Shown here piece by piece: positions 461-58,502 of a DNA stretch of 64,000 bases. Positions within the stretch are counted from its first letter, which is position 1, and every line of letters begins with the position of its first letter. The stretch lies in IMG/VR virus record IMGVR_UViG_3300049141_000098, positions 195,647 to 259,646 of that record; one strand, 5' to 3'. The notes under the pieces were generated by a model. It was not told where the DNA came from and searched no databases. It saw only the letters and a program-made list of their open reading frames with translations. This stretch comes from a virus. Lineage: Duplodnaviria; Caudoviricetes. The translations under genes and the position numbers were made by a program.

Positions 461-619
461 TCAGTGATCGAACCCGCTGAACAGCCACGCCCGGTACTCC
501 GGGTCGTTGTTCATCACCATGGAATCCCCGAACGGATTGCACTCCAGGCACATGCCGCGCCGGTCCTCCGGGTTCGCCTCATTGTGGCATTCGGCACTGA
601 CACACGGCCTACCCTTCAT
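461..619 (-). CDS. small Cys-containing hypothetical protein (MKGRPCVSAEC...)
   Basis: ATGA overlap with upstream gene; C-terminal part of track ORF 461..1111. Confidence 0.65.
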   Translation of the reverse strand: MKGRPCVSAECHNEANPEDRRGMCLECNPFGDSMVMNNDPEYRAWLFSGFDH

Positions 620-7775: not shown

Positions 7776-8075
7776 TCACTGACCCTTGACGGGGTTCGTC
7801 AGGGCCAGGTCCATCCCGTCGCCTGCTGCGGCGGACAGAACGACGTGCCGGGTGTCGTCGTGCATCCTGCCGTCTGTGTCGAGCAGACCGTAGCCGGACA
7901 GCACGCTCCCCAGGTTGCCGAACGGCAGGTGGCTGGGGTTGCGCGCGATCTGCACCGCCTCGAACAGTGCCAGGGGGTGTGCGTCCCGCACGACCTGAAG
8001 GGTCATCAGGGTTGTGCGCACGGTCGGCTCCGCAACGCTGCTGCCATCCTTCAGTTCCAGCATTTCCATAGTCAT
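7776..8075 (-). CDS. hypothetical protein
   Basis: Track ORF; ATGA coupling. Confidence 0.7.
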   Translation of the reverse strand: MTMEMLELKDGSSVAEPTVRTTLMTLQVVRDAHPLALFEAVQIARNPSHLPFGNLGSVLSGYGLLDTDGRMHDDTRHVVLSAAAGDGMDLALTNPVKGQ

Positions 8076-10221: not shown

Positions 10222-10545
10222 TCAGCCCTGCCGGTCGCCCATGGGCGGATACGTCGCGCCCGGGGCGGGCTCCCGCTTGTGCCACGGGGTGTCGTCCCCA
10301 GTCGTCGCGCTTCCGTCTGCGAGATCCTGCGCCCGGACCGCGTAGCCGTCCCGGTACGCCCGGCACAGGATCCCGTCCGGCCCGTCGGCGTACATGAATG
10401 GCACGTCCGTCACCTCCGTGGCGAACGGCTCCCGGTAGGTTTCGCTGTAGTCGTGCGCCCGGTCGGCGTCGTCCCGTCCGTGCTCCCACGCCTCCGCCGC
10501 GTCCGCGTTCTGCGCGAACTCCGACGGCATCCCTTTGCTGGTCAC
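10222..10545 (-). CDS. hypothetical protein (MTSKGMPSEF...)
   Basis: RBS motif before GTG 10545. Confidence 0.7.
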   Translation of the reverse strand: MTSKGMPSEFAQNADAAEAWEHGRDDADRAHDYSETYREPFATEVTDVPFMYADGPDGILCRAYRDGYAVRAQDLADGSATTGDDTPWHKREPAPGATYPPMGDRQG

Positions 10546-10568
10546 CCTGGTCCCCTTTCCGTTGTCCG

Positions 10569-10630
10569 TGCCGGGCGGCACTCCCGGGCAACCGGTCTCA
10601 CGACCGGTTGCCCTAGGGCGTCTCCCGTCA
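10569..10630 (-). other. long intergenic RNA hairpin, family 2
   Basis: 11-bp upper stem; flanks GGGAGACGCCCTA/GGGAGTGCCG pair as a mismatched lower stem. Confidence 0.65.
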
Positions 10631-10810
10631 GGTACAGGCCCCGTGCGTTGTACGTCCGCGCGGGACCGTCCCGGAGGGGTCGGCCAGCATCGCGCGGGGC
10701 GTGATGTTGCTTCCGAAGTACACGCCCTTCCCCCGGTAGTCGTTCGTCGCGTCACCCCGGTCAGGGTCCTGCGCCGCCCGATGCCGCGCCATCTTCACCG
10801 TGTGCGTCAT
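10628..10810 (-). CDS. small hypothetical protein
   Basis: Track ORF with RBS motif. Confidence 0.65.
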   Translation of the reverse strand: MTHTVKMARHRAAQDPDRGDATNDYRGKGVYFGSNITPRAMLADPSGTVPRGRTTHGACT

Positions 10811-10835
10811 GTCCCGTTTTCCCTTTCCGAATGGT

Positions 10836-10896
10836 GTCAGGCGACACCCCCGGGCGGTCGGAATGTCTCCCGGCCGCCCTAGCGCGACTCCCTGAC
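10836..10896 (-). other. long intergenic RNA hairpin, family 2
   Basis: Same flanks and mismatch positions as the 10569 copy, different upper stem. Confidence 0.65.
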
Positions 10897-10897
10897 G

Positions 10898-11248
10898 TCA
10901 GAGTGCGTTGACTTGATCCCGGTAACCGCCCGCGCAGTCGATCATTTCCGGATCGATCCGGTCCTGTTCGACGTTGAACATTCCGCGTGCCGTCTCCTCG
11001 AACGACGTACGGACCAGGGTTGCCAGGCGCCTCCGCCCGTTACCGTGATCCCGCCCCTCCCGCAGTACCGTCCACGTGTAGACGCGTCCGTCGGTCATGA
11101 GCATCACGCCACGCGCGAGACACTGATCACCGGGGCGCATCCGGAACTGGATGCTCTGCGACACCTTCCCTTCCACGTACTCACCGCGCCCGAAGCTGTA
11201 ACCGTTCGGTCCGTACGGTGCTCCCTGGTCCCAGAACGCTTCCGTCAT
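10898..11248 (-). CDS. hypothetical protein
   Basis: Track ORF with RBS motif. Confidence 0.75.
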   Translation of the reverse strand: MTEAFWDQGAPYGPNGYSFGRGEYVEGKVSQSIQFRMRPGDQCLARGVMLMTDGRVYTWTVLREGRDHGNGRRRLATLVRTSFEETARGMFNVEQDRIDPEMIDCAGGYRDQVNAL

Positions 11249-11271
11249 ATCTCCCGCTCTCCCTTCCGTTC

Positions 11272-11281
11272 GGCCTAGGCC
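11272..11281. promoter_or_regulatory. GRCCTAGGYC palindrome (candidate operator)
   Basis: GGCCTAGGCC just upstream of an RBS. Confidence 0.65.
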
Positions 11282-11290
11282 ACGAGGATG

Positions 11291-11632
11291 CTACCGCATC
11301 CGCCCGACGCCCGCGAAGGTTCCGTCAGCGACCGTCCGACGCAGCCACGCATCCCGCAGGGTCTCCAGGGTGCCGAGATCCCCGTAGCTGTGCTCGATCC
11401 CGTCCGCCGAGATCAGCGTGACCTGAGCGGCGAAAACGGACACCCACTCAATGGCCACGCACGTGATACGCCGACCGGCATACCGGTAGCCCGACACGCG
11501 GATCGCCGCGCCGTTGATCTTCCGGGTCGGCAGCCCTCCCATGATCCGGAGCTGTCCGACCCCGTCGTTCGCAACGGCCCCCGTCCCGGATTCCGTCGCG
11601 TGATCGCTGGGCTTGTCCATCGTGACACCCAT
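11291..11632 (-). CDS. hypothetical protein
   Basis: Track ORF with RBS. Confidence 0.65.
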   Translation of the reverse strand: MGVTMDKPSDHATESGTGAVANDGVGQLRIMGGLPTRKINGAAIRVSGYRYAGRRITCVAIEWVSVFAAQVTLISADGIEHSYGDLGTLETLRDAWLRRTVADGTFAGVGRMR

Positions 11633-12939: not shown

Positions 12940-14811
12940 TTACTTACCGGCCCTTGCCAGACCCTTGCGCGCAGCCTCCTGCGTGCGCTTGTCCGCCTTG
13001 CGCGGGGCGGGCTTGCGCTCACCCTTCGGCGTGAACTCCGGGCGAGGCTCGTGCGAAACCGTCCCGCCCACGTTGCCATCAGCGAACGATCCGACCGACG
13101 CGACCTTGCGAGACTCCCGACGCTCCGTTCCCGTGAGCCGGGACCCCTCGGCAATCTCCCTGGCCTTGGACGCTTCCCGCGCTTCCTCGCGGCCCTTGAG
13201 GTATGCGCCTACCTTTGTGGAGTGACGCCGCCGCTGGGCCCGGCTCATGCCCTTGTGGGCAATGTCCTTGGGTGCCTGGCACAGTGGGCAGATTTCACCG
13301 GACACCCCGGGGTCAACTCCCGGGCGAACCGTCGCGGGAAGGCTCATGGTTCCCGCCTTACCGACCCATCCGCCGGGCCGGACCGGAGCCATGTTCTGAC
13401 TCCCGGTCGTCGCGGCACCGTCCACCGAACCGTGATCCCGCTGACCCTTACCGGCGTCCGCACCCGTCCCGCGCGGGGTCACCTTGCGCTCGCCCTTGCC
13501 GTCCGCTCCCGCCCGGCGGAACGACTCACCCGGCACGGTGTGAATCGACATGATCCACACGTCGCCCTTCTTGCGCTGGACCCGCTTCAGCTCAACGCCA
13601 CGCCGACCGCACCCCTTGGGACCGTCGCACGTGATCGTCCCGCCCGTCGCGTCCTTGACCACCTTGCGCGACCGGCCGCACCGGGTCTCGGCAACGCGCC
13701 GCTTGTCCGCCGCCGCAGGGTCGCCCGGAATGGTCCCGTGTTCCACCGTGTCCATGGACTTTGAGGACATGTGCGGGTTCGCGGGAGGGTTCACCCCGTA
13801 CTCAAAGTGCGAACCGATCCGGAAGTCGTCGTCTGCCACCGTGTCCGCGAGGGGGATGTACGCGCGGCACTCCGGGCACTTCCCGTGCGTCCGCTCCGGG
13901 TTGACGATCTCCACCGGGCCCTTACCCGCGCACCCTCGATAGTCCGTGTCACCCGCACCATTCGTCCCGGACCACTGCCCCCGTCGCACCGCCGGATCCG
14001 GAAGGGACGCCACCTCCGCCGGTACGGGGTGACCGGCCGCGTAGTAAGCGGCAACCTGGGCCCGCATCTCAGCGTGCGTCAGACCCGTGACCCCGGTCGT
14101 CTCGTCCATTCCGGGCAGGGTCGGGGCAGACTCGTCCCGCACCGCCGGAACGGTCGGACGCTTGTGACGACGCATGCCACCCTCGCGACTTACCGCGATG
14201 ATCCGGTCGCAACCTTCCCCCGGGCACTTCCCAGAGTGCTTGCCGTTGTAGTCGTCCGGCACGCTCACGGTGTGGTCATCGCGCTGTACACGCGTCCCAG
14301 CCATCGGAGGCTCACCGGTCCCGTCACACCGGTCGTTCTGCGCGTCCCGCGCCGCCCGCTGTTCGGTCAGCCGCGCCCGCTCCCGGTCAACCGCCACCGT
14401 GCGCCGCGCCTTACCCTGCGCGCCCTTGGACGCCTTGACGATTTCCCGCACTTCCTCACGGGCAATCTCCCGCACTGCCGGAGCAATGTCCGCGCCCAGC
14501 TCCGGGCCACCCTCGGCACCCTCCGCGTACTGGGCATACTTAGCCTCACGCGCGGCCTCAATGTCGTTCTTCCCGCCGGTCGTGGCCAGCCACTTGACGC
14601 ACCGGGCACACATTCTGTCGCCGGTGAACTTTTCCGTCAGACGCTCCGAGTCGACACCCTTTCCGCCGCACGCCGTCCCAATCGTCCCGCCCGTCGCAAG
14701 CGGGTCATTCATCGCTCCCGCCGGAATCAGCAGCGCGTGACCCGCTCCGCTTTCGTACCCGTACATACGGGGGGTGTCATCGGCCGTGAGTGCCACAAAC
14801 AGACTGGTCAT
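12940..14811 (-). CDS. 623-aa hypothetical protein with several Cys-pair motifs
   Basis: Longest left-arm ORF; RBS motif; CARC, CPGEGC, CPEC, CPLC. Confidence 0.8.
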   Translation of the reverse strand: MTSLFVALTADDTPRMYGYESGAGHALLIPAGAMNDPLATGGTIGTACGGKGVDSERLTEKFTGDRMCARCVKWLATTGGKNDIEAAREAKYAQYAEGAEGGPELGADIAPAVREIAREEVREIVKASKGAQGKARRTVAVDRERARLTEQRAARDAQNDRCDGTGEPPMAGTRVQRDDHTVSVPDDYNGKHSGKCPGEGCDRIIAVSREGGMRRHKRPTVPAVRDESAPTLPGMDETTGVTGLTHAEMRAQVAAYYAAGHPVPAEVASLPDPAVRRGQWSGTNGAGDTDYRGCAGKGPVEIVNPERTHGKCPECRAYIPLADTVADDDFRIGSHFEYGVNPPANPHMSSKSMDTVEHGTIPGDPAAADKRRVAETRCGRSRKVVKDATGGTITCDGPKGCGRRGVELKRVQRKKGDVWIMSIHTVPGESFRRAGADGKGERKVTPRGTGADAGKGQRDHGSVDGAATTGSQNMAPVRPGGWVGKAGTMSLPATVRPGVDPGVSGEICPLCQAPKDIAHKGMSRAQRRRHSTKVGAYLKGREEAREASKAREIAEGSRLTGTERRESRKVASVGSFADGNVGGTVSHEPRPEFTPKGERKPAPRKADKRTQEAARKGLARAGK

Positions 14812-26163: not shown

Positions 26164-27410
26164 TCCTCTGCCTTTTCCTTCTCCTGCATCTTCTTCCACT
26201 TGCGGTAGCGATGAAGGGACATGTCGGGGAGATGGCCGCATTGCCGCAACGCTCGGGCCAGCCAGTTGTGATCCACCTCAAGATCCCTTGCGACCCCCTG
26301 AATCGGCTCCTCTTTATCGATAATTCGTTCAGTTAGTTCATCCAGACGATCCTCGATCTTTCTCCAACGGGGATCCGACATGTCCGGCTGTACTCGACCA
26401 TGCGAGTCCACACGTCCGGCAGTGAGATGTTCTATGGCTCCACTCCTCTCGGCGAACCGCCCATGCCGCGTGTACGACCTGGAATGAGGAGCCTTCTCCC
26501 GAGCTGGACGGGAGGTCTCTCTGAATGACACGCCTTCTCTTTTGAGCAGTGCGCGCAATTTGTCCAAACTGATATAAACGTCGCGTGCACTCAAGAAATA
26601 GAGAATAAACCCAAAATCCCTTTCCTCGTCCCGGTACATGCGAACAATTACTCCAGTCAGTCTGTCCAGCTCTCGACTGACCCACTCGCTTCGAGTAGAA
26701 ACGACATAGCCGCTCTGCTCCAACGCCTCCTTCAGTGCGTGAGTTCCGATTCCTGCGCGCCTGGCCAGGCGCGCAATGGATTCTCCCTTGCCTTCGGCGT
26801 GCCGCTTCGCGAGTGACCTCAATCGGTACTCGTTCAGCAGTGGCTCAGCCGAGGATGATGAACGCTCATCGGCGCGACGCACGAATCGATAAGGGCGAGT
26901 CGGAGGCTCGACCAGCCGAAGACCGTTGAAGAGCTGTGCGTGATAGAGATCCCTCGCCGACCTGAAGGAGAAGCCTTGTGGTGCGGCCCTCGGGATGTCG
27001 CCTGAATTCGCATGTCGAATAACCTGATGCCGGTCCAAAACCTGCTCTACAGCGCCTACCGTCACCGAGATGCCAGCCCTTTTCAAATCGGCGACGATGC
27101 GATGAACCGACTCTCCACCTTCATAGCGCTCGATCACTTCGCCTTGAGGAAGTTGCACAGCGATCCTATTAAGGGGCGTATTCCGCTCTTCCGGATCTAC
27201 GAGGAGACCTGCCCTCTTTAGGTGCTTCCTCAGAGTGACTCCTGTCGTGTCGACTTCTTTGGCGAGACTCGCCAAACTCTCGCCGCTGGCGTGCCGAATG
27301 GCCATCCTTGCAAGATCGACAAGGACCGAGTTCGGTCCTAGGCGGACGTAGTGCGCGACGAGGTCGCCCTCCATGTCGATGCCGTCCATCTCCTTCGACC
27401 GCTCCCCCAT
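26160..27410 (-). CDS. multi-helix-turn-helix DNA-binding protein
   Basis: Repeated units such as GESLASLAKEVDTTGVTLRKHL, GESIARLARRAGIGTHALKEAL, EPIQGVARDLEVDHNWLARAL. Confidence 0.75.
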   Translation of the reverse strand: MGERSKEMDGIDMEGDLVAHYVRLGPNSVLVDLARMAIRHASGESLASLAKEVDTTGVTLRKHLKRAGLLVDPEERNTPLNRIAVQLPQGEVIERYEGGESVHRIVADLKRAGISVTVGAVEQVLDRHQVIRHANSGDIPRAAPQGFSFRSARDLYHAQLFNGLRLVEPPTRPYRFVRRADERSSSSAEPLLNEYRLRSLAKRHAEGKGESIARLARRAGIGTHALKEALEQSGYVVSTRSEWVSRELDRLTGVIVRMYRDEERDFGFILYFLSARDVYISLDKLRALLKREGVSFRETSRPAREKAPHSRSYTRHGRFAERSGAIEHLTAGRVDSHGRVQPDMSDPRWRKIEDRLDELTERIIDKEEPIQGVARDLEVDHNWLARALRQCGHLPDMSLHRYRKWKKMQEKEKAEE

Positions 27411-27516: not shown

Positions 27517-28002
27517 ATGACCGTACTGAACATCCACCTCGAACCAGAGGTGCTTGCCCACCTCTCCAGCGCGGGTTCCACCGACGTCATCAACATCTCG
27601 ATCTCCCTCGGTGCGAAGCCTGTCGAGCCCGAGCCGGTGAAGGCTAAGCTCAGCGGTCCCCTAGCGGACCTCATGGAAGCTGGCCTGCTCAAGGCTGACG
27701 AGAAGCTGGCGTTCTACCAGCGTCGCGCCAAGCGGACCGGTCGGGCCACAGTGACGGCTGACGGGCAACTCATCGTTGAAGGGCAGGCCAAGGTCTTCTC
27801 GTCACCCTCCAAGGCGGCGGCGGCCGTCACAGGGAACGTCATCAACGGATGGACGCTGTGGCGGACCCAGAACGGCGAGGGGTCGACCCTCGACGAGCTG
27901 CGTCAGAGGCTGAACGCTCAGCCGCCCGGCTGCTGCGGACATGATCCGGAGCGTCATGACGACGACGGCTCGTGTCAGAGCTGCAACTGCAACTGGAAGT
28001 AA
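27517..28002 (+). CDS. RAMA-like (modified-DNA reader) domain protein
   Basis: LADLMEAGLL...ATVTADGQLIV...FSSPSKAAAAVTG...INGWTLWR. Confidence 0.7.
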   Translation: MTVLNIHLEPEVLAHLSSAGSTDVINISISLGAKPVEPEPVKAKLSGPLADLMEAGLLKADEKLAFYQRRAKRTGRATVTADGQLIVEGQAKVFSSPSKAAAAVTGNVINGWTLWRTQNGEGSTLDELRQRLNAQPPGCCGHDPERHDDDGSCQSCNCNWK

Positions 28003-32087: not shown

Positions 32088-32185
32088 CTGACATCTGCCA
32101 GGCCGGGGACCGATCCATCCGGTCCCCGGCGCGTTGTCAGTGCATGGGTGCAAGATGGGTAACCGAAGGGAAGGGGAAGCCGGAG

Positions 32186-34018
32186 ATGACGAAGAAGAAC
32201 CCAGCCTATGAGAACGGTTGGCACACCACAGGAACCCTGAAGGTGCTGCCGAGCATCGAGCAGATCGTCCAACGGCTGGAGGGAAATCCGGACGTCGTCC
32301 TACATGCCAGGCAGTTCAGGCAGGTGGATGGCTGGTGGGCCTGCGACGCCGTGTGGATGGCTGGGGGTGCTCGCGTGCGGGGACGGCTGAGCATCAACCA
32401 TCGCTCAAACCCGAACGATTCAACAGGCTCAGCGAAGAGCACATTCGATCCGAGCACCTACGATCCGGCAGTCGACCCCTCGGATGGCTACTTCCATGTC
32501 TTCGCTGAAGCAGATCGCCCCTGGGAAGCTCACTGGCCCTCCCCGCTTCAAGTGTTCTTGGACCGAAAGCTAAAGCCAAGCTACGTCACAATGGACTACG
32601 GCAGTCATAATCCGCTCCATTTGAAGAGCACCACTAATCTGAGTGGCTTGCTCGGCACGCTTGCCGAGCTGCCCTGGCTAGCCACAGTCCTTGTTCACGA
32701 CGAAATCAATCTCAACGTTATCACGCCACCTAGCGGCGTAGGCTATGAAATGCCTCTGATTTCCAGACTTCCCTCCAGTCTGTACGGTCGCATTCTCGAT
32801 GTTCGCATTATGGGCGAAGCGACCCGCAAGAAGACCAATGTCATCCTGAAGAAGTACGGCACCCATCTGCCTCAAGGCGGTGCGGCAATTCTGTTGTCGA
32901 CGGGGCGCAGGAAAGGCATTTCGCAGGCCAATCTATCCTTCCCGATGACTGGCAAATCCTTTGCCGAGGGTGGCGACATCACGCCCCTCGCGGTGTCGCT
33001 TTCCAACCTGCTGGCAGAACAGGTGATGGAAACTGACACCGATGCGATCGACGAATTGCGCAAGGAGTGGACGCTGCTCACCGACGCGGAGAAGACTCAA
33101 GAGGAAACTCTCTTCTTGGCCTCCGCCGCCGATCGCATCAAAGAACTGGAAGAAAAGAATGAGCATCTCCTTGAACTCCTGAACACCAGCCAGGAGTTCA
33201 ATGATCATTTTCGTAACAGCGCAGACTCTCTGCTTGAAGAGCTTCAGAAGTCAGTTCTGCGGGAGTGTGATGCGATCAACGAACGAGATGAAGCCCAAAA
33301 CGAGTTGATCAATCTGAGGGACTTCATAGCTGAAAGCGACCTCGGTAAGGCTATACAGGAGCGCGACGAAGCCCTGGAAGAAGCAGAGCTTTCTGAAGAG
33401 CTACTGGATGAGCAGACACACGAGCTGACCGCCTTGCGCCAAGAGGTTGCCAGCCTTCGTCGCGAACTGGGCCGCCTCGGCAGCACCTTCACCTCCGCAC
33501 CCCCTGTGACCATCGAAGATGAAACGCCCAGCACCTGGGATGACTTCTTCACTCGCGCCAGCAGCCTGGAGTTCGTAAAGCTCGGCAAGGTGGAGAGTGA
33601 GGTCGACAAACTTCGCGGGCAGGTGCAGGAACGCATCTGGATCAATCGATCCTGGGAAGCCCTGTTGGCTCTGGAGGAGTATGCCCGGCTCAAGAAGGAG
33701 CGAGGCACTGAGGAGCTGCCCCACTTCCACGCCTACCTTCTGGACTCCAAGGCCGAACATGTCATCCCCCGCACCCGGTACTCCAGCACGGAGTCGAAGG
33801 GCGTGATGATGAACAGCCGATTCGTGGCCGCGCGCACTCTGCCGGTATCAACACAGGTCGAGCCTTCCGGGAAGATCGTAATGGAGGCTCACATCCGCAT
33901 CGGATCAGGCAAGCCACCTGCGCCGAGGATGCACTTCTATGACGACACCAGCGGCTCAACCGGGAAGATCTACGTCGGTCACCTCGGCCCACATTTGCCG
34001 AACTATCAAACGAACTGA
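32186..34018 (+). CDS. large coiled-coil protein with putative C-terminal RelE-like nuclease domain (moron)
   Basis: Visibly lower GC; own RBS and terminator; heptad-rich middle; C-terminus AHIRIG...RMHFYDD...KIYVGHLGPHL. Confidence 0.7.
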   Translation: MTKKNPAYENGWHTTGTLKVLPSIEQIVQRLEGNPDVVLHARQFRQVDGWWACDAVWMAGGARVRGRLSINHRSNPNDSTGSAKSTFDPSTYDPAVDPSDGYFHVFAEADRPWEAHWPSPLQVFLDRKLKPSYVTMDYGSHNPLHLKSTTNLSGLLGTLAELPWLATVLVHDEINLNVITPPSGVGYEMPLISRLPSSLYGRILDVRIMGEATRKKTNVILKKYGTHLPQGGAAILLSTGRRKGISQANLSFPMTGKSFAEGGDITPLAVSLSNLLAEQVMETDTDAIDELRKEWTLLTDAEKTQEETLFLASAADRIKELEEKNEHLLELLNTSQEFNDHFRNSADSLLEELQKSVLRECDAINERDEAQNELINLRDFIAESDLGKAIQERDEALEEAELSEELLDEQTHELTALRQEVASLRRELGRLGSTFTSAPPVTIEDETPSTWDDFFTRASSLEFVKLGKVESEVDKLRGQVQERIWINRSWEALLALEEYARLKKERGTEELPHFHAYLLDSKAEHVIPRTRYSSTESKGVMMNSRFVAARTLPVSTQVEPSGKIVMEAHIRIGSGKPPAPRMHFYDDTSGSTGKIYVGHLGPHLPNYQTN

Positions 34019-34022
34019 AGTT

Positions 34023-34051
34023 CTGCGGCCCCGAGCGATCTGGGGCCGCAG
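34023..34051. terminator. hairpin terminator
   Basis: CTGCGGCCCC/GGGGCCGCAG directly after the stop codon. Confidence 0.65.
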
Positions 34052-34059
34052 TGTTGCAG

Positions 34060-34311
34060 TCAGTCGATGTCTTCATGCCCAATCAGCAGCGTGCACTCCC
34101 CTAGGTCATTCAGGGGGAAGTTGCACTCGTACCCGTTCGCAGCCTGCGCACTGCACAGTCCGTTGCCGCTCGACCAGTAATCATCCTCCCGGTCGAGCGG
34201 GATCCAGTCGGGATAAGCCTCTTCGAGTTCGATCTGTTCGTACTTCTCCGGGTGGTTGGTCTGTTCGATGATCGTCGCCTGTAGCTTCAAGCCTGCGCCA
34301 GAGGTCTTCAC
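34060..34311 (-). CDS. possible small hypothetical protein
   Basis: Track ORF filling the gap. Confidence 0.45.
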   Translation of the reverse strand: MKTSGAGLKLQATIIEQTNHPEKYEQIELEEAYPDWIPLDREDDYWSSGNGLCSAQAANGYECNFPLNDLGECTLLIGHEDID

Positions 34312-36152: not shown

Positions 36153-36319
36153 CTAAGGAAGAGTACGAGCAGAAGCGGCGGGAGCTGGACGAGCAGGCGG
36201 AGGTGGCCAAGAAGGCGTACCTCGACGCCAAGAGGGTCTACGACAAGATCTGCGATCAGATGCTCAACCTCCGCATCGAGTTCCGCGAGCAACAGAAGGC
36301 GGAGGAGGGGGGACGATGA
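36149..36319 (+). CDS. small coiled-coil protein (MTKEEYEQKRREL...)
   Basis: Hand-translated; coupled at both ends. Confidence 0.65.
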   Translation: MTKEEYEQKRRELDEQAEVAKKAYLDAKRVYDKICDQMLNLRIEFREQQKAEEGGR

Positions 36320-36840
36320 AACCCCTCCTGATGATCGACGTGGACGGACCGCTGAACCCCTGGGCCGCCAAACCCCATCGACGTCCCGAGGGTTACCGGA
36401 CGCACCGCATGCGCCCCGCTGGCTGGGAGCAGCCCTGGCAGAAGCCGCTCAGAGTCTGGCTCAACCCACAGCACGGACCTGCCCTGCTCGCCCTTCCATT
36501 CGACCTCGTCTGGTGCACCACTTGGGGTCACGAGGCGAACGAGTGGATCGGCCCCCACATAGGGCTGCCAAGCCTTCCGGTGATCGAGTGGCCGGAAGGC
36601 GTGAGGGAACAGTCGAGCCCGTACTGGAAGTCTGAGCCCAAGGTCTTCTGGAAGACCGAAACGCTCGTCAAGTACGCGGCCGGTCGTCCCTTCGCGTGGA
36701 TCGACGATGACCTCACGGACCTGGACCGGGAGTTCGTCACCCGACATCACAACGGGCGAGCCCTCCTGCATCACGTCGACCCCCGGAAGGGGCTCTTGGA
36801 AGGTGACTTCCGGGCCCTTTCCAACTGGGCTTCGTCGTAG
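36316..36840 (+). CDS. HAD-superfamily phosphatase-like protein
   Basis: LLMIDVDGPLNP, VWCTTW, FAWIDDD. Confidence 0.85.
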   Translation: MKPLLMIDVDGPLNPWAAKPHRRPEGYRTHRMRPAGWEQPWQKPLRVWLNPQHGPALLALPFDLVWCTTWGHEANEWIGPHIGLPSLPVIEWPEGVREQSSPYWKSEPKVFWKTETLVKYAAGRPFAWIDDDLTDLDREFVTRHHNGRALLHHVDPRKGLLEGDFRALSNWASS

Positions 36841-39235: not shown

Positions 39236-40024
39236 CTACACCTTGCGCCAGCTTGGCACCCAGGCTCCGCTCTCGGTTACCTCGTAGTCACCGAAGAGCG
39301 CTGGGACTTCCTTCTTCATCAGCTCACCGACCTTGCCGAAGACGAGCCTGATCTCTTCCTCGGCACCTTCTGCGGTGCGGCACTCGATAACGTGCCGAAG
39401 CGTCCTGACGTTGGCGCTCCAGACCACGGTGGTTGCGACCCCTTCAGGGGCGAAGCGGCGCATGAAGGATGTCTTGTGCTTCTTCTCCTTGAAGGGCACG
39501 CCGTCGTCGTCGAGGCCGAAGTGGTCGGCCATCCAGAGCTGGAGCTTCTCCATCTCCTGGAGCAGGCGAACCGTTCGGGTCATCAGCTCGCCGTCCTCCT
39601 GGGCCCACTTGGGGAACCAGAACGGAAGGCTGTCGAGCCGGACGAAGCGCAGAGACTCCTGGCTGATGGCTGTTCCAACGCGATGACGCACCTGCTCATG
39701 CGTTTCGACTCGACTGACGTTGGAGAAGATGAAATTGAAAGTCAAGTGCTCCAGGACTGAGCCGTGCGCGCTGGAGAGGATGTTTTCCAGGTAGGCCTCC
39801 TGATCGGTGCGCACCCTGGTGACGTTCGGATTCAGACCCGGCTCCCAGGAGCGATAGCAGGTGCGCCCGCAGATCTCGGCGAGGGCCTGGGCGTCATTGC
39901 GCTCGCCCCTGTCCAGGCGCTCCAGCCAGCTCTCTCCACCGACCTCTTTCAGGTAGTCGGCGACTGCCTCGTAGTCGAGTGATGGTCGGCCTATCAGCCG
40001 AACATCGGGCTGTACGAAGTGCAT
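39236..40024 (-). CDS. thyX: FAD-dependent thymidylate synthase
   Basis: THEQVRHRVGTAISQESLRFV (RHR motif), NVRTLRHVIECR. Confidence 0.95.
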   Translation of the reverse strand: MHFVQPDVRLIGRPSLDYEAVADYLKEVGGESWLERLDRGERNDAQALAEICGRTCYRSWEPGLNPNVTRVRTDQEAYLENILSSAHGSVLEHLTFNFIFSNVSRVETHEQVRHRVGTAISQESLRFVRLDSLPFWFPKWAQEDGELMTRTVRLLQEMEKLQLWMADHFGLDDDGVPFKEKKHKTSFMRRFAPEGVATTVVWSANVRTLRHVIECRTAEGAEEEIRLVFGKVGELMKKEVPALFGDYEVTESGAWVPSWRKV

Positions 40025-43266: not shown

Positions 43267-43542
43267 GTGAACAACTCGGCCGACCATCCAGGGTCCATCA
43301 CGTTCGGCTGGTGCTTCGATCACGGTCGACTGCACCGCTTCGCCCCAAACCTCGACGAGGGCGGGAAGGTCGAGCAGTGCAGCGCCGCCTGGGCTCCCCT
43401 CGACGGCTCGACCGACGAGGAGGCGCTGGCCCAGAAGGAACTGATCTGGGGTCCGGCGCAGTTCTTCCATGAACTCGACCTCGATCGCCAAGGCGGCCTG
43501 GTCGGCATGATGATGGTCCGTCGAGGTGCGCGCTCCTCGTGA
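43267..43542 (+). CDS. hypothetical protein
   Basis: GAGAGG RBS; GTGA coupling to the recombinase. Confidence 0.6.
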   Translation: MNNSADHPGSITFGWCFDHGRLHRFAPNLDEGGKVEQCSAAWAPLDGSTDEEALAQKELIWGPAQFFHELDLDRQGGLVGMMMVRRGARSS

Positions 43543-44645
43543 CACTCCCCTCAACTCCCCCTCGCGCGGAACTCGTTCGCGGTGGAGCCGAGGAGACCGT
43601 CCTGACGTGGCTACGAGACACACTTGGCACGGTGGCACCCAGGGACCCCCGCACTCGGCGCCTCGGGGAGCGTCGGCACCGACTTGATCTCCTCGCAGAA
43701 CTTCTCGATCGGGAAACGTTTCTACTGGCCACATCCTGGCTGGGGTCAAGTGCGGTTCCTAGCGCAAAAAGCAAGCAGGCCTACGCAGACGATCTGCGCT
43801 ACTGGGCTAATTGCGTAAGGGAACTGACCGAGGAAGAGCCTCTTTCCTGGGCCTCCATCACCCCGGAAATCATCGAGATCTGGACGAAAATCCAAGAGGC
43901 AAACAAGGTCAAGCCCCGGACGATGAATCGCCGAATGTCCTCATGGTCTTCCTTCATCAAATACGTGTCCTGGAAGAAGAAGGATCCACAGATCGGCACG
44001 CCGGTGAGTGAGTATGACCGGGCTTCCGTTCAGTCTCTGGACGAGGACAGCGCCACGCCGATCCTTGAGAAGGAGGAGCTTCAGCAGGTCATCCTCGCTG
44101 CCGACACGGTCGAAGAGGCCTTGACCGTCGTCCTCATCTACACCCTTGCGGGGCGGGTCACCGAGTCGTGTACAGCGCTGCGCGAACAGATGACCCACAG
44201 GCTGGTTGAGGGGAAGCTAAAACACTTCATCAAGCTGATCCGCAAGCGCGGCAAGAAGCCTGACTGGCCAATCCCGGATGAGTTGTGGGAGCTGATTCAG
44301 GCGGTCTCGGAACTGCATCCCAACGCGCCGACGATCTTGGTAGACAGCGATGGAAATCCAATGGACCGGCATACGGTCGACCGGATTCTAACCCGCCTCG
44401 GAAAGAAAGCCAACGTACTTTCGGGACGCGATCTAACCCCACACGTCCTGCGGGCCTCGCGCCTGACTCACATGCACGACGAGGGTGAAAGGCTCCAGGA
44501 CATTCGGGACTACGCGGGGCACTCGCGATCAGACACCACCTTGGGCTACATCATTCGACGAGACACCAGCCGCAGGCGGGCCGAGCTTGCCGACAAGGCG
44601 GCCAGCGTCTACGTCGATCTCACCAAACGATTCCTGAGACAGTGA
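43539..44645 (+). CDS. tyrosine recombinase (Xer/integrase family)
   Basis: Catalytic set R (AGRVTE), K, HVLR, GHS, TTLGY; N-terminal core-binding region. Confidence 0.9.
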   Translation: MTLPSTPPRAELVRGGAEETVLTWLRDTLGTVAPRDPRTRRLGERRHRLDLLAELLDRETFLLATSWLGSSAVPSAKSKQAYADDLRYWANCVRELTEEEPLSWASITPEIIEIWTKIQEANKVKPRTMNRRMSSWSSFIKYVSWKKKDPQIGTPVSEYDRASVQSLDEDSATPILEKEELQQVILAADTVEEALTVVLIYTLAGRVTESCTALREQMTHRLVEGKLKHFIKLIRKRGKKPDWPIPDELWELIQAVSELHPNAPTILVDSDGNPMDRHTVDRILTRLGKKANVLSGRDLTPHVLRASRLTHMHDEGERLQDIRDYAGHSRSDTTLGYIIRRDTSRRRAELADKAASVYVDLTKRFLRQ

Positions 44646-50293: not shown

Positions 50294-52663
50294 ATGCTTT
50301 CACAGGAAGAGCGCATAGCTACTGACGCTGAGGCGTACTTCAGAAACCAGGCACGTCAGGCCGGTTGGGTAAACGATCCTGCGGGCTGGGCCAGGGACGT
50401 TCTGGGGGTCCACCTGTGGAGTAAGCAGCGCGAGATCTGCGACTCGCTCATCCACAACAAGAGGACCGTCGTCGCTTCATGTCACGGCACCGGGAAGGCC
50501 CTGGGGCTGGACGAGTTGGTGCACACACCCGACGGGCCGATGGCTATGGGTGACGTGCGCGAAGGCACGACGGTGTTGGGCGCCGACGGCAAGCCGGTGT
50601 CGGTGGTCGCCACGACGGGCGAGCACAAGGCGGAGTCTTACAAGGTTCGCCTTGAACGAGGCGGCGCAACCGAGGAAATCGTCGCTTCCGGCGACCATCT
50701 CTGGCCCGTCCTTCCGCTTCAGATCCTGGCTGACATCCAGATCAAATCCGACCGTGCGGGGGTCCCGGTGGAGACGGGTTTGTGGCATCACCGGGCACAG
50801 GTCATGTCCACGAAAGAGCTGGCCCGACTCCAGGGAATCGCGGTAGTTCCGGGGAAAGTTCCAGAGATCTTCCCCCGTGGAACGGAGTGGGACACCCGCG
50901 AAGTGCTGTCGGACTCATTGAGGGAGAGGGCGGTCCTGGACCCCCTCGGTCGAACTTCCCTGCTCTGGAAGACGCGCAAGGATGAACCAGAGGAGATCTC
51001 AGCAATCCGGGATCGCATGCGGGCGGCCGGGGTGCACACGATCTACCGGCGCGAGCGGCAGTACGGCACCACGATGCGGCATCTGGCCCTGATGGGGACC
51101 CACGCCCCGAACCTGCTTCCAGACCCGAACGTTCGCGCAGTCGCTCTTTCGCACCTGCTGAGCAAGCAGGGAAGTTGGGGCGATGACGGGTGGAGGGTCG
51201 TTTCCGTAAAGCCTGTCGGTGAGCGGGATGTGCAGTGCATCCAGGTCGACTCACCAGACCACCTGTATCTGTGCGGCGAAAGCGGGGTTCCCACCCACAA
51301 CTCGATGATCGCCTCCGTGCTGGCCTGTTGGTGGGTGTCCACCAAACCGCCCGGCCAGGCCATCGTGGTATCGACTGCCCCAACGTACGCCCAGGTCAAC
51401 AAGATCCTCTGGGAGGAGATTCGCAAGCACCACTCCAACTCGCAGCGGGGGGAGTACCCCATGCCGGGCCGAGTGACGCAGGCAGACGAATGGAAGCTGG
51501 CCGACGGCCAGATCGTCGGATTCGGCCGTAAGCCAGCCAAGGGCGACCGGCACTCCTTCCACGGCATCCACCGGCGCTTCGTGCTGGTCCTGTTGGATGA
51601 AGCGTGCGGCGTGCCGGAGGAGATCTGGACCGGCGTTGAGGCCATCACCACGAACGTCGGTTGCCGCATCCTGGCCATTGGGAACCCCGACGACCGCAAT
51701 ACGGAGTTCGGCAAGAACTTCCTGGAGCCCAAGACGGCCCACCTCTGGAACCGCGTCTCGATCCCGGCAGCGACCACACCGAACTTCACCGGCGAGCCGG
51801 TGCCGAGGCTGCTGAACGAAGTGCTCATCTCCCGAGAGTGGGCAGAGGAGCGTCTGGCCGACTGGGGAGAGAAGGATCCTCGCTACATATCGAAGATCGA
51901 AGCCAAGTTCCCCGAGCAGAGCCAGTCGTCGCTGTTCTCACCGTCGCTCATTGCCGACGCGATTGATGAACCCCCTGCGCCGTCGAAGTACTCGATCCTG
52001 CGCCTGGGTGTGGACGTTGCCCGCTTCGGCTCCGACAAGACAGTGGTCGCCTCCTGCTCGGGCGTGACCGCACAGATCGAGGAGTCGTGGTCCGGCGTCG
52101 ACACCGTGTCGTCGGCATACAAGGTGCTGGACATCGCCGAGCGCCTGAAGGAAGAACGCAAGGCACCCTGGGTGGAGATCCGAGTTGACGGCGTCGGCCT
52201 GGGGGCTGGCGTCATCGACACCCTCAACGCCCGTGCCGCACTGCTGCCCGACCCCTGGTTCACCGTGTACGAGATGCACGGGTCGGCTTCCCCTCCGGCA
52301 AATGTGGGCGGCTCGGTCTACGGCTTCTACAACGCAAGGGCTTACTGGTTCGACCAGCTCCGTCAGAAGATGCGCAACAGCTCGGTGAAGCTGATCGACC
52401 CTGACGAGCTGATCGCTGACGACCTGAAGATGGTCTTCTACTCGATCAAGAACGGCCGCCTGCTCATCGCCTCGAAGGAAGCGATGAGATCCGAGTATGG
52501 CCGCTCCCCTGACCTTGCCGACGCCGTCGCCTACGCCACGGCACCCGTTGCTGATGGTCTTCAGCAAGGCGACATCGTCGCCGAGACGGCGGTAGAGGTT
52601 GCCGGTATGTACGGCGAGGAAGAGTGGCTGACAGATCCCGAGACTGTGATCGCCCCGTACTGA
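50294..52663 (+). CDS. terL: terminase large subunit with intein
   Basis: Walker A SCHGTGK/S split by the intein; Walker B LVLLDEA; GNP motif; nuclease LGVDVARFGSD, PDLADA. Confidence 0.95.
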   Translation: MLSQEERIATDAEAYFRNQARQAGWVNDPAGWARDVLGVHLWSKQREICDSLIHNKRTVVASCHGTGKALGLDELVHTPDGPMAMGDVREGTTVLGADGKPVSVVATTGEHKAESYKVRLERGGATEEIVASGDHLWPVLPLQILADIQIKSDRAGVPVETGLWHHRAQVMSTKELARLQGIAVVPGKVPEIFPRGTEWDTREVLSDSLRERAVLDPLGRTSLLWKTRKDEPEEISAIRDRMRAAGVHTIYRRERQYGTTMRHLALMGTHAPNLLPDPNVRAVALSHLLSKQGSWGDDGWRVVSVKPVGERDVQCIQVDSPDHLYLCGESGVPTHNSMIASVLACWWVSTKPPGQAIVVSTAPTYAQVNKILWEEIRKHHSNSQRGEYPMPGRVTQADEWKLADGQIVGFGRKPAKGDRHSFHGIHRRFVLVLLDEACGVPEEIWTGVEAITTNVGCRILAIGNPDDRNTEFGKNFLEPKTAHLWNRVSIPAATTPNFTGEPVPRLLNEVLISREWAEERLADWGEKDPRYISKIEAKFPEQSQSSLFSPSLIADAIDEPPAPSKYSILRLGVDVARFGSDKTVVASCSGVTAQIEESWSGVDTVSSAYKVLDIAERLKEERKAPWVEIRVDGVGLGAGVIDTLNARAALLPDPWFTVYEMHGSASPPANVGGSVYGFYNARAYWFDQLRQKMRNSSVKLIDPDELIADDLKMVFYSIKNGRLLIASKEAMRSEYGRSPDLADAVAYATAPVADGLQQGDIVAETAVEVAGMYGEEEWLTDPETVIAPY
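50498..51301 (+). mobile_element. class 3 intein (268 aa) in the TerL P-loop
   Basis: Starts with Ala (ALGLDELVHTPDG); DHLW, VQCIQV, PTHN/S give the Trp-Cys-Thr signature. Confidence 0.9.
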
Positions 52664-53725: not shown

Positions 53726-55450
53726 ATGAAGATGCCGAGGTCCCTCGAAGAGATGTCACTCACGGAAATCCAGACTTTCGTGAGCAACCTCGAAGCCCAC
53801 AACGAGGAACTGGTTGGTCTGGTCTCCGAGGAGATGCGGGAGGCCGGAGAGTTCGGCCGTGCGCAGCTCGCTCTGGAGGACATCGGCTGGCGTCCCCTGA
53901 TGGGTATGGCAGAAAACGCCAACTCGTTCACGCTGGACGCCCTGCACCACGCGAGTGACTTGTGCCGGGCCGTCGCTACGGTCAATCCCCTAGTCGGCCG
54001 TGGCCTTCGTGTACGCACCGGCTACATCTGGGGCTCTGGTGTGTCGGTTGTCCCCAAGGAGTTCATCCAGGGACCGGGTCGGCCCAGGACGGTGAACGTC
54101 GAGCCAGAGCTTCCCGAGGGTATCGAGGAAGTACTGACCGGACCTCTCGCCCAGCTTGAGCTGGAGCGAAGTTCGGGAACCGACGGCAACCTCTTCTTCC
54201 TTGTCGACCGCCGGACGAAGGAAGTGCAACGCGTCCCTTTCGAGGAGATAACCGAGGGGGTTTCTCAGCGCGGCAACCGGGAGCGGCTGATGTACATACG
54301 CCGCACCTGGAACGACTGGGATCTCGAACTCGACTTCGGCAACGACATCGAGCTGAGTCCCATCACCGCACCAAAGGCTGCCGCGCGAGGCCGGAGCTGG
54401 ATGCGCGCAGACCGCGAAGGAGACTCGGGCGGGGCCGCGAAGTTCTCCTTCCGGGATTGCTGGTATCCGACGCCCGCCGGACTGCGGACCATGGGACGCA
54501 ATCGCGGAGCCGCGAACATCGCAGGGGATCCGGTCGACAACACAAAGGTGCTCGTGCACGTCCCCTTCAACCGGCTGACCGGCTGGCGCTGGGGCATCCC
54601 TGACGTGCTGCCTGCCGTTTGGTGGACCAAGGCATACAAGGAGTACCTGGAAAACTGCTCAACGCTCACGAAGGCCTACGCGCGCTTCGCCTGGAAAGTC
54701 ACCTCCGACAAGTCCCGGTCGGTACGACGCACTGCCGCCGCCATCGCCCAGAGCCCGCGCCTCGATCCCGCCACTGGAGCGCCTCTGAACGTGGGCGGTT
54801 CAGCAGTGCTGGGTGCGGGGCAGGATCTGTCGTCCGTGGGCGGCAACACCAAGGTCGACTTCGACTCCGGCAGGCCGCTGGCCGCCATGATTGCTTCAGC
54901 CCTGGATGTTCCCCTTCCAGCCCTGCTGGAGGATCCCTCTATTGCGAACAACGCGGCGGCCACCTCCCTGGACACCTCGACGATCCTGGTGATGCAGGCT
55001 CGTCAGAAGGTCATGGACGAAACATTCCGCCAGATCTTCAAAGTGCTGGGCCTGAAGGTGAGGTTGCGCTGGCCGGAGATCTCCGAAGAGCCCGTCCATC
55101 GCCGCATGCAGGCGCTCGATATGGCAATTCGACTGGGACTGGTGTCAGCAGACGAAGCACGCGCTATGGTTCTCGACGCCTGGCATGACAAGTGGGAAGA
55201 CTTCGAGCGCAGGGCGCCGATGATTGACAAACTTCCTCTTGTGGCGGGCGGAACAGCCCAGGGGACTCAAGAGCCTCCATCGTCGGCAAATCCCGGAAAA
55301 CCCTCCACTAATTCCGGCGAAACTGGCACCGATGGCACGGGCGGGCCAGGCGCCCCTGCCCCTTTGAAGTCCGGAAACTCCCGCTCAAACGCCGCCCCGA
55401 AGCAACCGGATCCGATGTCCTACGCAGACCACGAACTGCGGGATGAATAA
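53726..55450 (+). CDS. portal protein
   Basis: 574 aa between TerL and protease; DGNLF, RWGIPDV motifs. Confidence 0.85.
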   Translation: MKMPRSLEEMSLTEIQTFVSNLEAHNEELVGLVSEEMREAGEFGRAQLALEDIGWRPLMGMAENANSFTLDALHHASDLCRAVATVNPLVGRGLRVRTGYIWGSGVSVVPKEFIQGPGRPRTVNVEPELPEGIEEVLTGPLAQLELERSSGTDGNLFFLVDRRTKEVQRVPFEEITEGVSQRGNRERLMYIRRTWNDWDLELDFGNDIELSPITAPKAAARGRSWMRADREGDSGGAAKFSFRDCWYPTPAGLRTMGRNRGAANIAGDPVDNTKVLVHVPFNRLTGWRWGIPDVLPAVWWTKAYKEYLENCSTLTKAYARFAWKVTSDKSRSVRRTAAAIAQSPRLDPATGAPLNVGGSAVLGAGQDLSSVGGNTKVDFDSGRPLAAMIASALDVPLPALLEDPSIANNAAATSLDTSTILVMQARQKVMDETFRQIFKVLGLKVRLRWPEISEEPVHRRMQALDMAIRLGLVSADEARAMVLDAWHDKWEDFERRAPMIDKLPLVAGGTAQGTQEPPSSANPGKPSTNSGETGTDGTGGPGAPAPLKSGNSRSNAAPKQPDPMSYADHELRDE

Positions 55451-57119: not shown

Positions 57120-58502
57120 ATGAACACCCTGAACCTCCTCGACGGAATCAAGGCCACCTCGAACCCTCAGTTCGAGCGGATCGCCGAGGCTCACAAGCAG
57201 CGTCGCGCCGCCATCCGTGAGGGCGCGGATGCGCGTCTGCTCAAGATGAACCGCGCCGTCGAGTTCCTGCGCCTCAAGCGCGAGGCGGAAGTCGGCTCGC
57301 CCGTTGCGATGGGCCGTCTGCGCGAGGCCGTGTCCAGCGGCGACTTCCCGCTGCTGTTCCAGTCGATCAGCCAGGCGTCGATGCTCGGTCAGTACGCCGA
57401 ACTGCCGCAGCAGTGGCCGACGTTCTCCGTGCGGACCACGGTTCCGGACTTCCGTCCGGCGCGCATGGTCCGCTGGGACACGGTGGCCGGTCAGAGCCAG
57501 ACGACCGACTACAACGGCGGCGCCGAGCGTCATGTCCGGGCGCTGCCCCGGATCCCGGAGCTGACCGAGTACCCGACGTTCAACCTGACGACGGAGGGTA
57601 CGGACTACTTCGTCAACAAGTACGGAGCCAGGTTCCCCTTCTCGTGGGAAGCCTTCATGAACGACGAGCTGCGGGTTCTCTCGCAGCTCCCCACCGAGAT
57701 GGCACGGTGGGCCCGTGACACCGAGGACGTCCTGACCACGGGCGTGCTGGCCACCTCCAGCGGTCCGAACCCGGACTTCTTCAACACCACGGAGAACTTC
57801 GGCGCCAACGCTCCGGTGGGCAACTACGTCGAGGGCAACCCGGCGCTGACCCTGGACGCCCTGGAGCACGCGATCAACCAGATCAGCATGCGCACCGTGG
57901 CGGGCCGCCAGGTCCGAGTGCAGAACTTCGTTCTGCTCGTCCCGCCGTCTCTCGCGCTCACCGCGCAGGAGATCGCGCAGGGCACCACGTACCTCAAGGT
58001 GCGCCAGCTCCCCGACGGCACGGAGATGCGTCAGAACATCTCCTCGCCGGTCGCGGGCCGCTTCACGGTCGTGGAGTCCCCGTGGCTGCCGCTCATCGAC
58101 TCGTCGGCCACCGCTCCGACGACCTGGTACCTGATCCCGGCCGGTGGGCAGACCGATCGTGGTCCGGCGATCGTGACCGCATTCCTGCGTGGCCACGAGA
58201 CCCCCGAGGTCCGAGTCATGGGCGACACGGGCCGGGCACTCGGCGGCGGCGACCTCTCCGCCTTCGAGGGTTCGTTCTCCCACGACGACATCCAGTACCG
58301 CGTTCGCTCGATCATCGGCGCCGCCGGTATCGACGCGTCGGCGGTCGCGGTGTCGCTGGGCAACGGCGTGGACAACAACCTGCGGATGGCCTCCATCACC
58401 AGCGGTCCCTCGGTGACGGGTCCCTCCTCGGCGCCCACCGCCACCGCTTCGGACACGAAGCAGTCCAGCACCACCAAGGGCAGCAACCCGAAGAGCTCCT
58501 GA
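57120..58502 (+). CDS. major capsid protein
   Basis: GAAAGGAGG RBS; strong codon bias; DFPLLF, VPDFRP, YGARF..SWE.F.ND motifs. Confidence 0.9.
   Translation: MNTLNLLDGIKATSNPQFERIAEAHKQRRAAIREGADARLLKMNRAVEFLRLKREAEVGSPVAMGRLREAVSSGDFPLLFQSISQASMLGQYAELPQQWPTFSVRTTVPDFRPARMVRWDTVAGQSQTTDYNGGAERHVRALPRIPELTEYPTFNLTTEGTDYFVNKYGARFPFSWEAFMNDELRVLSQLPTEMARWARDTEDVLTTGVLATSSGPNPDFFNTTENFGANAPVGNYVEGNPALTLDALEHAINQISMRTVAGRQVRVQNFVLLVPPSLALTAQEIAQGTTYLKVRQLPDGTEMRQNISSPVAGRFTVVESPWLPLIDSSATAPTTWYLIPAGGQTDRGPAIVTAFLRGHETPEVRVMGDTGRALGGGDLSAFEGSFSHDDIQYRVRSIIGAAGIDASAVAVSLGNGVDNNLRMASITSGPSVTGPSSAPTATASDTKQSSTTKGSNPKSS

Follow-up and report, generated by a model that had tools for sequence, protein, structure and literature searches.

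The stretch of DNA analyzed here (hereafter the window; 64,000 nucleotides) covers the final 64 kb of an IMG/VR virus record of 259,646 bp, IMGVR_UViG_3300049141_000098, and it carries on its plus strand a gene for a 610-residue protein that is flanked by hairpins and preceded by a promoter motif of the kind that is turned on in actinobacteria in response to DNA damage. We consider it probable that the protein is a distant relative of HEC-07 carried by a phage, HEC-07 being an anti-phage protein made of one polypeptide, and that it acts by the mechanism proposed below. The features of the locus, in window coordinates, are as follows.

32102..32130 (+): GC-rich hairpin with an 11-bp stem that closes the upstream gene block (dG -31.8 kcal/mol, z -4.1, 0/200 shuffles fold as well)
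32135..32156 (+): PafBC / RecA-NDp-type motif TGTCAG-N10-CAAGAT (-26 element plus -10 element), TGTCAGTGCATGGGTGCAAGAT, 51 nucleotides before the start codon
32186..34018 (+): coding sequence of 610 residues plus stop, HEC-07-like protein
32204..32575 (+): N1 domain, residues 7-130, beta-alpha-beta4-alpha fold, candidate sensor part (model m1e7fae592e5d)
32576..33055 (+): N2 domain, residues 131-290, thioredoxin-like fold with no cysteine (structure alignment)
33056..33550 (+): coiled-coil region, residues 291-455, heptad-rich, predicted parallel homodimer over residues 307-432
33551..34015 (+): RelE/YafQ-like (Barnase/EndoU/colicin/RelE, BECR) RNase-fold domain, residues 456-610 (model m62956f234715, fold matches, NsnC profile)
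33833-33835, 33890-33892, 33926-33928 and 33992-33994 (+): candidate catalytic residues R550, H569, R581 and H603, respectively
34023..34051 (+): imperfect GC-rich, terminator-like hairpin of ~12 pairs directly after the stop codon (dG -26.9 kcal/mol, z -4.2, 0/200 shuffles fold as well)

The open reading frame (ORF) extends from 32144 to 34018 (+) and gives 624 residues from its first ATG. Judging from the sequence, the ATG at 32186 (610 residues) is a better start than that at 32144, because a Shine-Dalgarno-like GGAAGGGGAAG precedes it and the homologs all begin at an aligned M-[TSA]-K-K. The longer start was dismissed, since its codon lies within the promoter motif region and the extension occurs in no homolog. 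GC content is 0.54-0.58 within the gene (500-nucleotide windows) and 0.63-0.67 on both flanks, and at third codon positions (GC3) it is 0.69 compared with about 0.72-0.82 in the neighboring ORFs; such a dip is not unique in the window, as 26250-26749 also shows 0.54. The upstream hairpin insulates the gene on its 5' side, and a hairpin could be found at the equivalent place in three related phage contigs (L002, L006 and L007, described below). Neither flanking hairpin was listed by a consensus terminator scan, because both are without a T-tract; actinobacteria commonly have such tail-less hairpins. Hairpin, PafBC-type promoter motif, ORF and second hairpin together make the gene an autonomous unit of low GC content. 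A first-pass annotation, made from the sequence alone, had described a 610-residue ORF with visibly lower GC content and its own terminator, and each of these statements holds, although the terminator is a hairpin that lacks a T-tract. Searches of Pfam, PHROGs and NCBIfam with the protein returned nothing beyond coiled-coil noise, and neither megablast nor tblastn detected a counterpart in 50,697 GenBank phage records. In a sequencing-run search, two soil-metagenome DNA runs carried the sequence and no RNA run was among those listed.

The nature of the tail was analyzed by structure prediction. The AlphaFold model of the last 175 residues (m62956f234715) had a pLDDT score (predicted local distance difference test) of 96.4 and a predicted template modeling (pTM) score of 0.90. 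When this model was compared with 48,161 PDB representatives by VIA-align, ranks 1-24 were all RelE/ParE-superfamily toxins (Z 6.9-3.9), aligned over nearly the whole length of the targets. The top match was HP0894 (4ls4; Z 6.9, root mean square deviation 3.1, 86/90 residues), and further matches included YafQ (4q2u; Z 6.5), YoeB (7v6w; Z 6.4), RelE (Z 5.7) and HigB (Z 5.3). The PADLOC model of NsnC (PDLC03912) matched residues 489-605 at profile positions 221-311 of 316 with an E-value of 2.3e-11, and PDLC03879 also matched the C-terminal domain (E 5e-5). Furthermore, R550, H569, R581, G601 and H603 were invariant in 132 aligned C-terminal parts, and H569, R571, R581, H583, G598, G601, H603 and L604 were invariant in 22 full-length homologs. 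The unbroken run of one superfamily, the full target coverage, the match to the NsnC profile and the invariance of the His/Arg set support, at the level of the model, a RelE/YafQ-like endoribonuclease fold for the last ~155 residues, and RNase activity is predicted. The C-terminal motif quoted in the first-pass annotation is indeed present, and its suggestion that the tail resembles RelE-fold RNases agrees with the 24 best PDB matches and the NsnC profile. Of the comparisons proposed there, PADLOC gave the NsnC match, and Foldseek of the C-terminal model listed the same toxin families (4ltt among them) only weakly (E > 0.3), with no PDB match at E <= 0.001.

It should be noted that ParE gyrase poisons matched the model nearly as well as the RelE-type RNases (8c26, Z 6.0; 5czf, Z 5.8), and that a PDB sequence search with the family profile A2 found no RelE relative, the best match being a chance one to CP12 (E 0.0045). 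Both observations would suit a tail that is not an RNase but a ParE-like gyrase poison or a binding domain, which would act on DNA topology or serve as a decoy pairing with host HEC-07-like proteins via the coiled coil. Such a tail is the least probable of the explanations weighed here, considering that the best fold matches are HP0894, YafQ and YoeB, that the NsnC effector profile matches the tail, and that R550, H569, R581 and H603 are invariant, the last histidine lying seven residues from the C-terminus in parallel with H543 of HEC-07. To our knowledge, ParE proteins lack such a His/Arg set.

In front of the predicted RNase domain, the first-pass annotation had placed an N-terminal alpha/beta region and a long coiled coil, and both could be recognized. 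The model of residues 1-300 (m1e7fae592e5d; pLDDT 90) contains two alpha/beta sub-domains. Fold matches of N1 were all weak (SciW, KA1, adaptin appendage, START/PYL and YwmB; Z about 6, Foldseek E >= 3e-3). N2 had dozens of thioredoxin matches, the best of which (3d6i; 102/107 residues aligned) reached Z 7.7, a middling score that shows no more than the fold class of the modeled domain. Only two cysteines, C53 and C361, are present in the whole protein, and none is in N2. No match at E <= 0.001 was obtained by Foldseek of the N-terminal model against PDB, PIN entries were not among its 50 listed fold matches, and a word-index search with the N-terminal 300 residues revealed no new architecture. 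A feature search of the Atlas returned nothing usable. Three ESM Atlas clusters of unannotated actinobacterial proteins (334-415 residues) matched the whole N-terminal module at template modeling (TM) scores of 0.76-0.78. Residues ~291-455 are heptad-rich and were modeled as a parallel dimeric coil. In the two-copy model of residues 285-610, parallel and in-register dimer contacts extend over residues 307-432, the contacts of the three runs coincide to at least 96%, and the partner pLDDT is 80. The interface score (ipSAE) was 0.47 versus 0.00 for the best of three controls; a score at this level is attained by 20 of 30 homodimers with solved structures and by 1 of 23 monomers. Conservation relative to the homolog P0004 was 83% in the effector domain, 59-69% in the N-terminal half and 52% in the coil; the effector domain is the best conserved, and the coil and N-terminal half have diverged most.

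An exhaustive HMMER search revealed 1215 representative clusters (E <= 0.001) sharing the C-terminal ~230 residues, and nearly all of the best 150 of them matched the last ~230 residues only and were 500-650 residues long. At least 232 family matches were found in a one-genome-per-species collection, and Pfam detected no domain in ten diverse bacterial members. We retrieved 80 bacterial loci via the conserved motifs of the family, all from Actinomycetota and mostly from Streptomyces. On the basis of neighbor clustering, a 1371-residue DrmMI/type-IIG-like methyltransferase lies upstream in 13 loci; in ~10 others the gene lies between an SMC-like ABC ATPase (LmuB/mad3-like), an AAA_5+DUF4357 protein and a UvrD helicase; and 12 loci are on ~150-kb plasmid or phage-like elements, where the gene is followed by two ORFs of no known family. 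The two relatives scanned from the methyltransferase and ATPase/helicase contexts matched HEC-07 model PDLC04161 (L063:5050-6702, E 5.5e-24; L042:5011-6648, E 1.8e-24) and also NsnC. As judged from their sequences and gene neighborhoods, the bacterial relatives with the common C-terminal ~230 residues sit in methylase/ATPase/helicase defense islands. Single-sequence searches split the fetched family into 72 members with the N-terminal type of the 610-residue protein and 117 with that of HEC-07.

With respect to the plasmid or phage-like elements, the gene is followed in L010-L018, L026, L028, L031 and L037 by a gap of 64-70 nucleotides, a ~735-residue ORF and then a ~390-residue ORF (for example, L013:7818-10025 and 10448-11620). 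No Pfam or PADLOC match could be found for either downstream ORF, and the three genes could be an undescribed cassette.

HEC-07 (Hma-embedded candidate 07; PADLOC models PDLC04158-04161) was described by Payne et al. (bioRxiv 10.1101/2024.01.29.577857). Its three parts are an AdoMetDC-like domain, a thioredoxin-like domain devoid of CxxC and a tail of the RelE family that resembles HP0892; the tail's conserved C-terminal histidine (H543) is called important for RNase activity in several other RelE-family toxins, and it was among the seven of nine candidates that lowered plaquing in E. coli (bioRxiv 10.1101/2024.01.29.577857). The likeness to this protein and the defense-island context of the bacterial relatives support, by analogy, a sensor-coil-effector defense gene with a predicted protective role. 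The first-pass annotation had proposed the same architecture and purpose, and the neighborhood comparison that it suggested points the same way, in that bacterial relatives adjoin methylase, ATPase and helicase genes of defense type.

The motif upstream of the gene resembles the PafBC consensus tGTCgg(N10)tA(N3)T (PMC8635444), and two PafBC-type matches occur in the window versus 0.2 expected. Among loci with the N-terminal type of the 610-residue protein, 12 of 27 carry the motif, compared with 1 of 52 chromosomal loci of the HEC-07 type. Its distance from the start codon is 51-53 nucleotides in most of the 12 matching loci and 51-61 nucleotides over all of them. L002 and L007 carry the motif, L006 carries it with one mismatch, and ten plasmid or phage-like loci have it with a differing spacer. 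A scan for sigma-70 promoters found none. In the 260-kb phage genome, the pattern TGTCRGTG-N8-nAnnnT occurs six times, five of them on the minus strand, versus 0 for the reversed control (genome G000 positions 13139, 98126, 176115, 181511, 196227 and 227781, one of them at 581-602 (-) of the window). No WYL regulator gene could be found in the phage genome. The phage may use the DNA-damage activator of its host for a small set of genes.

The gene occupies a syntenic position in four related large phage contigs, namely L002 (253 kb, from a Streptomyces isolate assembly), L006, L007 (251 kb) and L009 (199 kb), and the 253-kb isolate contig encodes a near-full-length relative of the protein. A cultured relative of the phage appears to be present in the isolate Streptomyces sp. 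NPDC058947. Between L002 and the window, the flanking genes are 63-88% identical and the gene itself 60%. Because of the shared position in all four contigs, sequence comparison indicates a long-standing, fast-evolving resident of the phage lineage and not a recent one-off insertion. Thus, the term moron used in the first-pass annotation is only partly appropriate: the autonomous low-GC transcription unit stands, whereas the notion of a one-off acquisition does not.

A fixed place in the lineage, inside a block of small phage genes, is also what would be expected of a host-takeover nuclease, whose RelE-type domain would cut host mRNA in the phage lytic cycle and shut off host translation, the N-terminal half aiming it at host ribosomes or transcripts. 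No immunity gene is present, and a PafBC-type promoter (motif in PMC8635444) would presumably fire once phage replication yields single-stranded DNA; the six motifs in the phage genome versus none in the reversed control would fit as well. However, all identifiable non-phage relatives are in defense-type islands or on plasmids, and HEC-07, the sole tested relative of the same layout, protects cells from phages. In addition, the gene is the least conserved of its neighborhood (60% versus 63-88%) and its N-terminal half evolves fastest, which is usual for conflict genes and not for core takeover functions. On balance, a takeover nuclease appears unlikely.

We also searched for a partner of the RNase-type protein. 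No RelB/Phd/YefM-like or other antitoxin family was found among the neighbors of the gene. A convergent 83-residue ORF (34060-34311, minus strand) has a coding-like GC3 of 0.76 and is strongly acidic (17 D+E, 4 K+R); it had no Pfam or PHROG match and no tblastn counterpart in L002, L006, L007 or L009. This ORF was dismissed as an antitoxin on account of its opposite strand, the absence of a family match and its missing counterparts in the four orthologous contigs. A small acidic ORF with the common sequence MLDFLAES...VPADPDW lies directly 3' of the gene in L002 (9886-10011, +) and L007 (about 7870-7985, +) and is absent from the window, L006 and L009. As far as can be seen from sequence, there is no conserved antitoxin gene or partner, in agreement with the first-pass remark that no antitoxin was obvious.

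These findings also bear on the idea of an addiction (post-segregational killing) module that would stabilize a large episomal phage-plasmid, with the toxin checked by a labile partner whose gene is either at another site or a small neighboring ORF. The RelE-superfamily fold of the tail would fit such a module, as would the close relatives on ~150-kb plasmid or phage-like elements (including a named Streptomyces plasmid, L028), the phage-sized 253-kb contig that stands alone in its isolate assembly, and the acidic ORFs that follow the gene in L002 and L007 or converge on it in the window. Nevertheless, we regard addiction as very improbable: the small ORFs are not conserved, being absent in L006 and L009, and that of the window is on the other strand without a tblastn counterpart; no antitoxin family adjoins the gene; and classical RelE toxins are ~90 residues long, without a sensor-like extension of 450 residues.

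Several observations weigh against the assignment to HEC-07-like defense. First, none of the PADLOC HEC-07 models matched the 610-residue protein at E <= 1, and a profile-profile comparison of its N-terminal family (A3) with that of the HEC-07 type (A4) was not significant (probability 0.5%, E 0.12). Second, the AdoMetDC-like nature of N1 was not reproduced; AdoMetDC and spermine synthase entries were not among the listed N1 fold matches, and those listed were weak. Third, fold Z-scores of 6-7 for the modeled tail are middling, with the ParE poisons close behind, and a coiled-coil dimer is an easy prediction. Fourth, the promoter motif departs from the consensus at the first base of the -10 element, which is C instead of T, and the difference in motif occurrence between the two N-terminal types (Fisher p = 3.5e-6) is inflated by shared ancestry. 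Finally, a fixed place among phage genes annotated without function would also be compatible with a part in the life cycle of the phage itself.

Under the preferred reading as a HEC-07-like defense gene, the mechanism could be as follows. Host PafBC, which responds to single-stranded DNA when DNA is damaged and probably also when phages replicate, would induce the gene. Its dimeric product would remain inactive until a trigger is encountered by the rapidly evolving N-terminal half, whereupon the RelE-type domains would cleave mRNA and halt translation; as with RelE, YoeB and YafQ, cleavage would probably take place on the ribosome. If the cell harbors the phage as prophage or episome, a competing phage would have its infection aborted. 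An antitoxin would not be needed, because control would lie within the molecule.

A more far-reaching view, which we put forward only tentatively and hold to be somewhat doubtful, is that the phage/plasmid branch represents a distinct defense design, in which a HEC-07-like RNase with an unrelated N-terminal sensor is wired to the PafBC single-stranded DNA alarm. An abortive or exclusion nuclease of a resident giant phage or plasmid would then stay unarmed until DNA damage or the replication of a rival is sensed, and the N-terminal module would be a new reusable sensor that also occurs in the unannotated actinobacterial proteins of 334-415 residues.

The source element is a genuine phage of Streptomyces type whose terminase, portal, protease and capsid genes lie in the window, and the record has direct terminal repeats. 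Other genes located in the window are as follows.

39236-40024: ThyX
43539-44645 (+): tyrosine integrase
50294-52663: large terminase
53726-55450: portal
57120-58502: capsid-type protein

The protease gene is also among these phage genes, and the neighbors of the 610-residue gene encode a multi-helix-turn-helix protein, a GntR regulator and proteins of no recognized function. The tyrosine integrase and terminal repeats of the 260-kb phage, together with the 253-kb relative forming its own contig in a Streptomyces isolate assembly, suggest a temperate or episomal (carrier) life style for giant phages of this type. Two further genes could be observed in the surroundings. One (27517-28002, +) encodes a stand-alone RAMA + DUF4357 protein of 161 residues; RAMA is usually tied to restriction or methylase proteins, and DUF4357 also occurs in the AAA_5 protein adjoining bacterial HEC-07-type genes (L042:6726-8618). 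The other (36316-36840, +), 2.3 kb downstream of the RNase-type gene, encodes a 174-residue protein with a weak, sub-cut-off match to the 'Swiss Army Knife' RNA repair HAD domain (E 3e-4).

HEC-07 is known only from one preprint and one tested protein, whereas the HEC-07-type effector and layout are widespread in Actinomycetota, as the matches in the one-genome-per-species collection illustrate. Giant phages of Streptomyces and plasmid-like elements of 150 kb have this effector and layout too, combined with a differing N-terminal half and a DNA-damage-type promoter. This branch gives a concrete handle on the regulation of single-protein RNase defenses and bears on how, in antibiotic-producing Streptomyces, large phages with a temperate or episomal life style compete with others; phage defense in these hosts is still little explored.

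Among known systems, the RelE-type toxins (RelE, YoeB, YafQ and HP0894) have the fold predicted for the last ~150 residues (Z 5.5-6.9, with 83-87 residues aligned) and likewise a catalytic-type His/Arg set near the C-terminus. They are ribosome-dependent mRNA endonucleases that form stand-alone proteins of ~90 residues with an adjacent antitoxin; in the 610-residue protein the predicted fold contains insertions and is fused to ~455 residues, no antitoxin gene is present, and no solved toxin is matched at the sequence level.

The Menshen system uses NsnC as its effector; BECR RNases make up most NsnC tail families, and the commonest tail, PB-BECR1, has an H-R-H triad (PMC12065111). NsnC also has an inactive PIN-like domain at its N-terminus, a family of which no entry was among the 50 listed fold matches of the N-terminal model. 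The C-terminal BECR domain of the 610-residue protein matches the NsnC profile, and its invariant H569, R581 and H603 are like the PB-BECR1 triad. On the other hand, the protein is twice as long as NsnC. No PF03235 match (NsnA, ParB-DUF262) could be found in the whole 259,646-bp phage genome, and no ABC ATPase, the type of protein that NsnB is in the Menshen system, was found adjoining the gene.

The resemblance to HEC-07 extends over the whole layout. Both are single polypeptides of ~550-610 residues without a partner gene, and both have the part order of alpha+beta domain, thioredoxin-like domain lacking CxxC and RelE-family tail. Both tails are closest to H. pylori HP0892/HP0894 and have a conserved histidine near the C-terminus, and the C-terminal ~230 residues are homologous to proteins that match the HEC-07 models. 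The 610-residue protein differs in failing those models itself, in N-terminal profiles that are not detectably related, and in a longer coiled coil (~165 residues). Its gene is on a 260-kb phage, whereas HEC-07 is embedded in an Hma system, and the phage and plasmid copies carry the PafBC-type motif that the HEC-07-type chromosomal copies lack. The kind of system is one already described in HEC-07; what is new is a divergent branch on phages and plasmids that has an N-terminal module of its own and a promoter of PafBC type.

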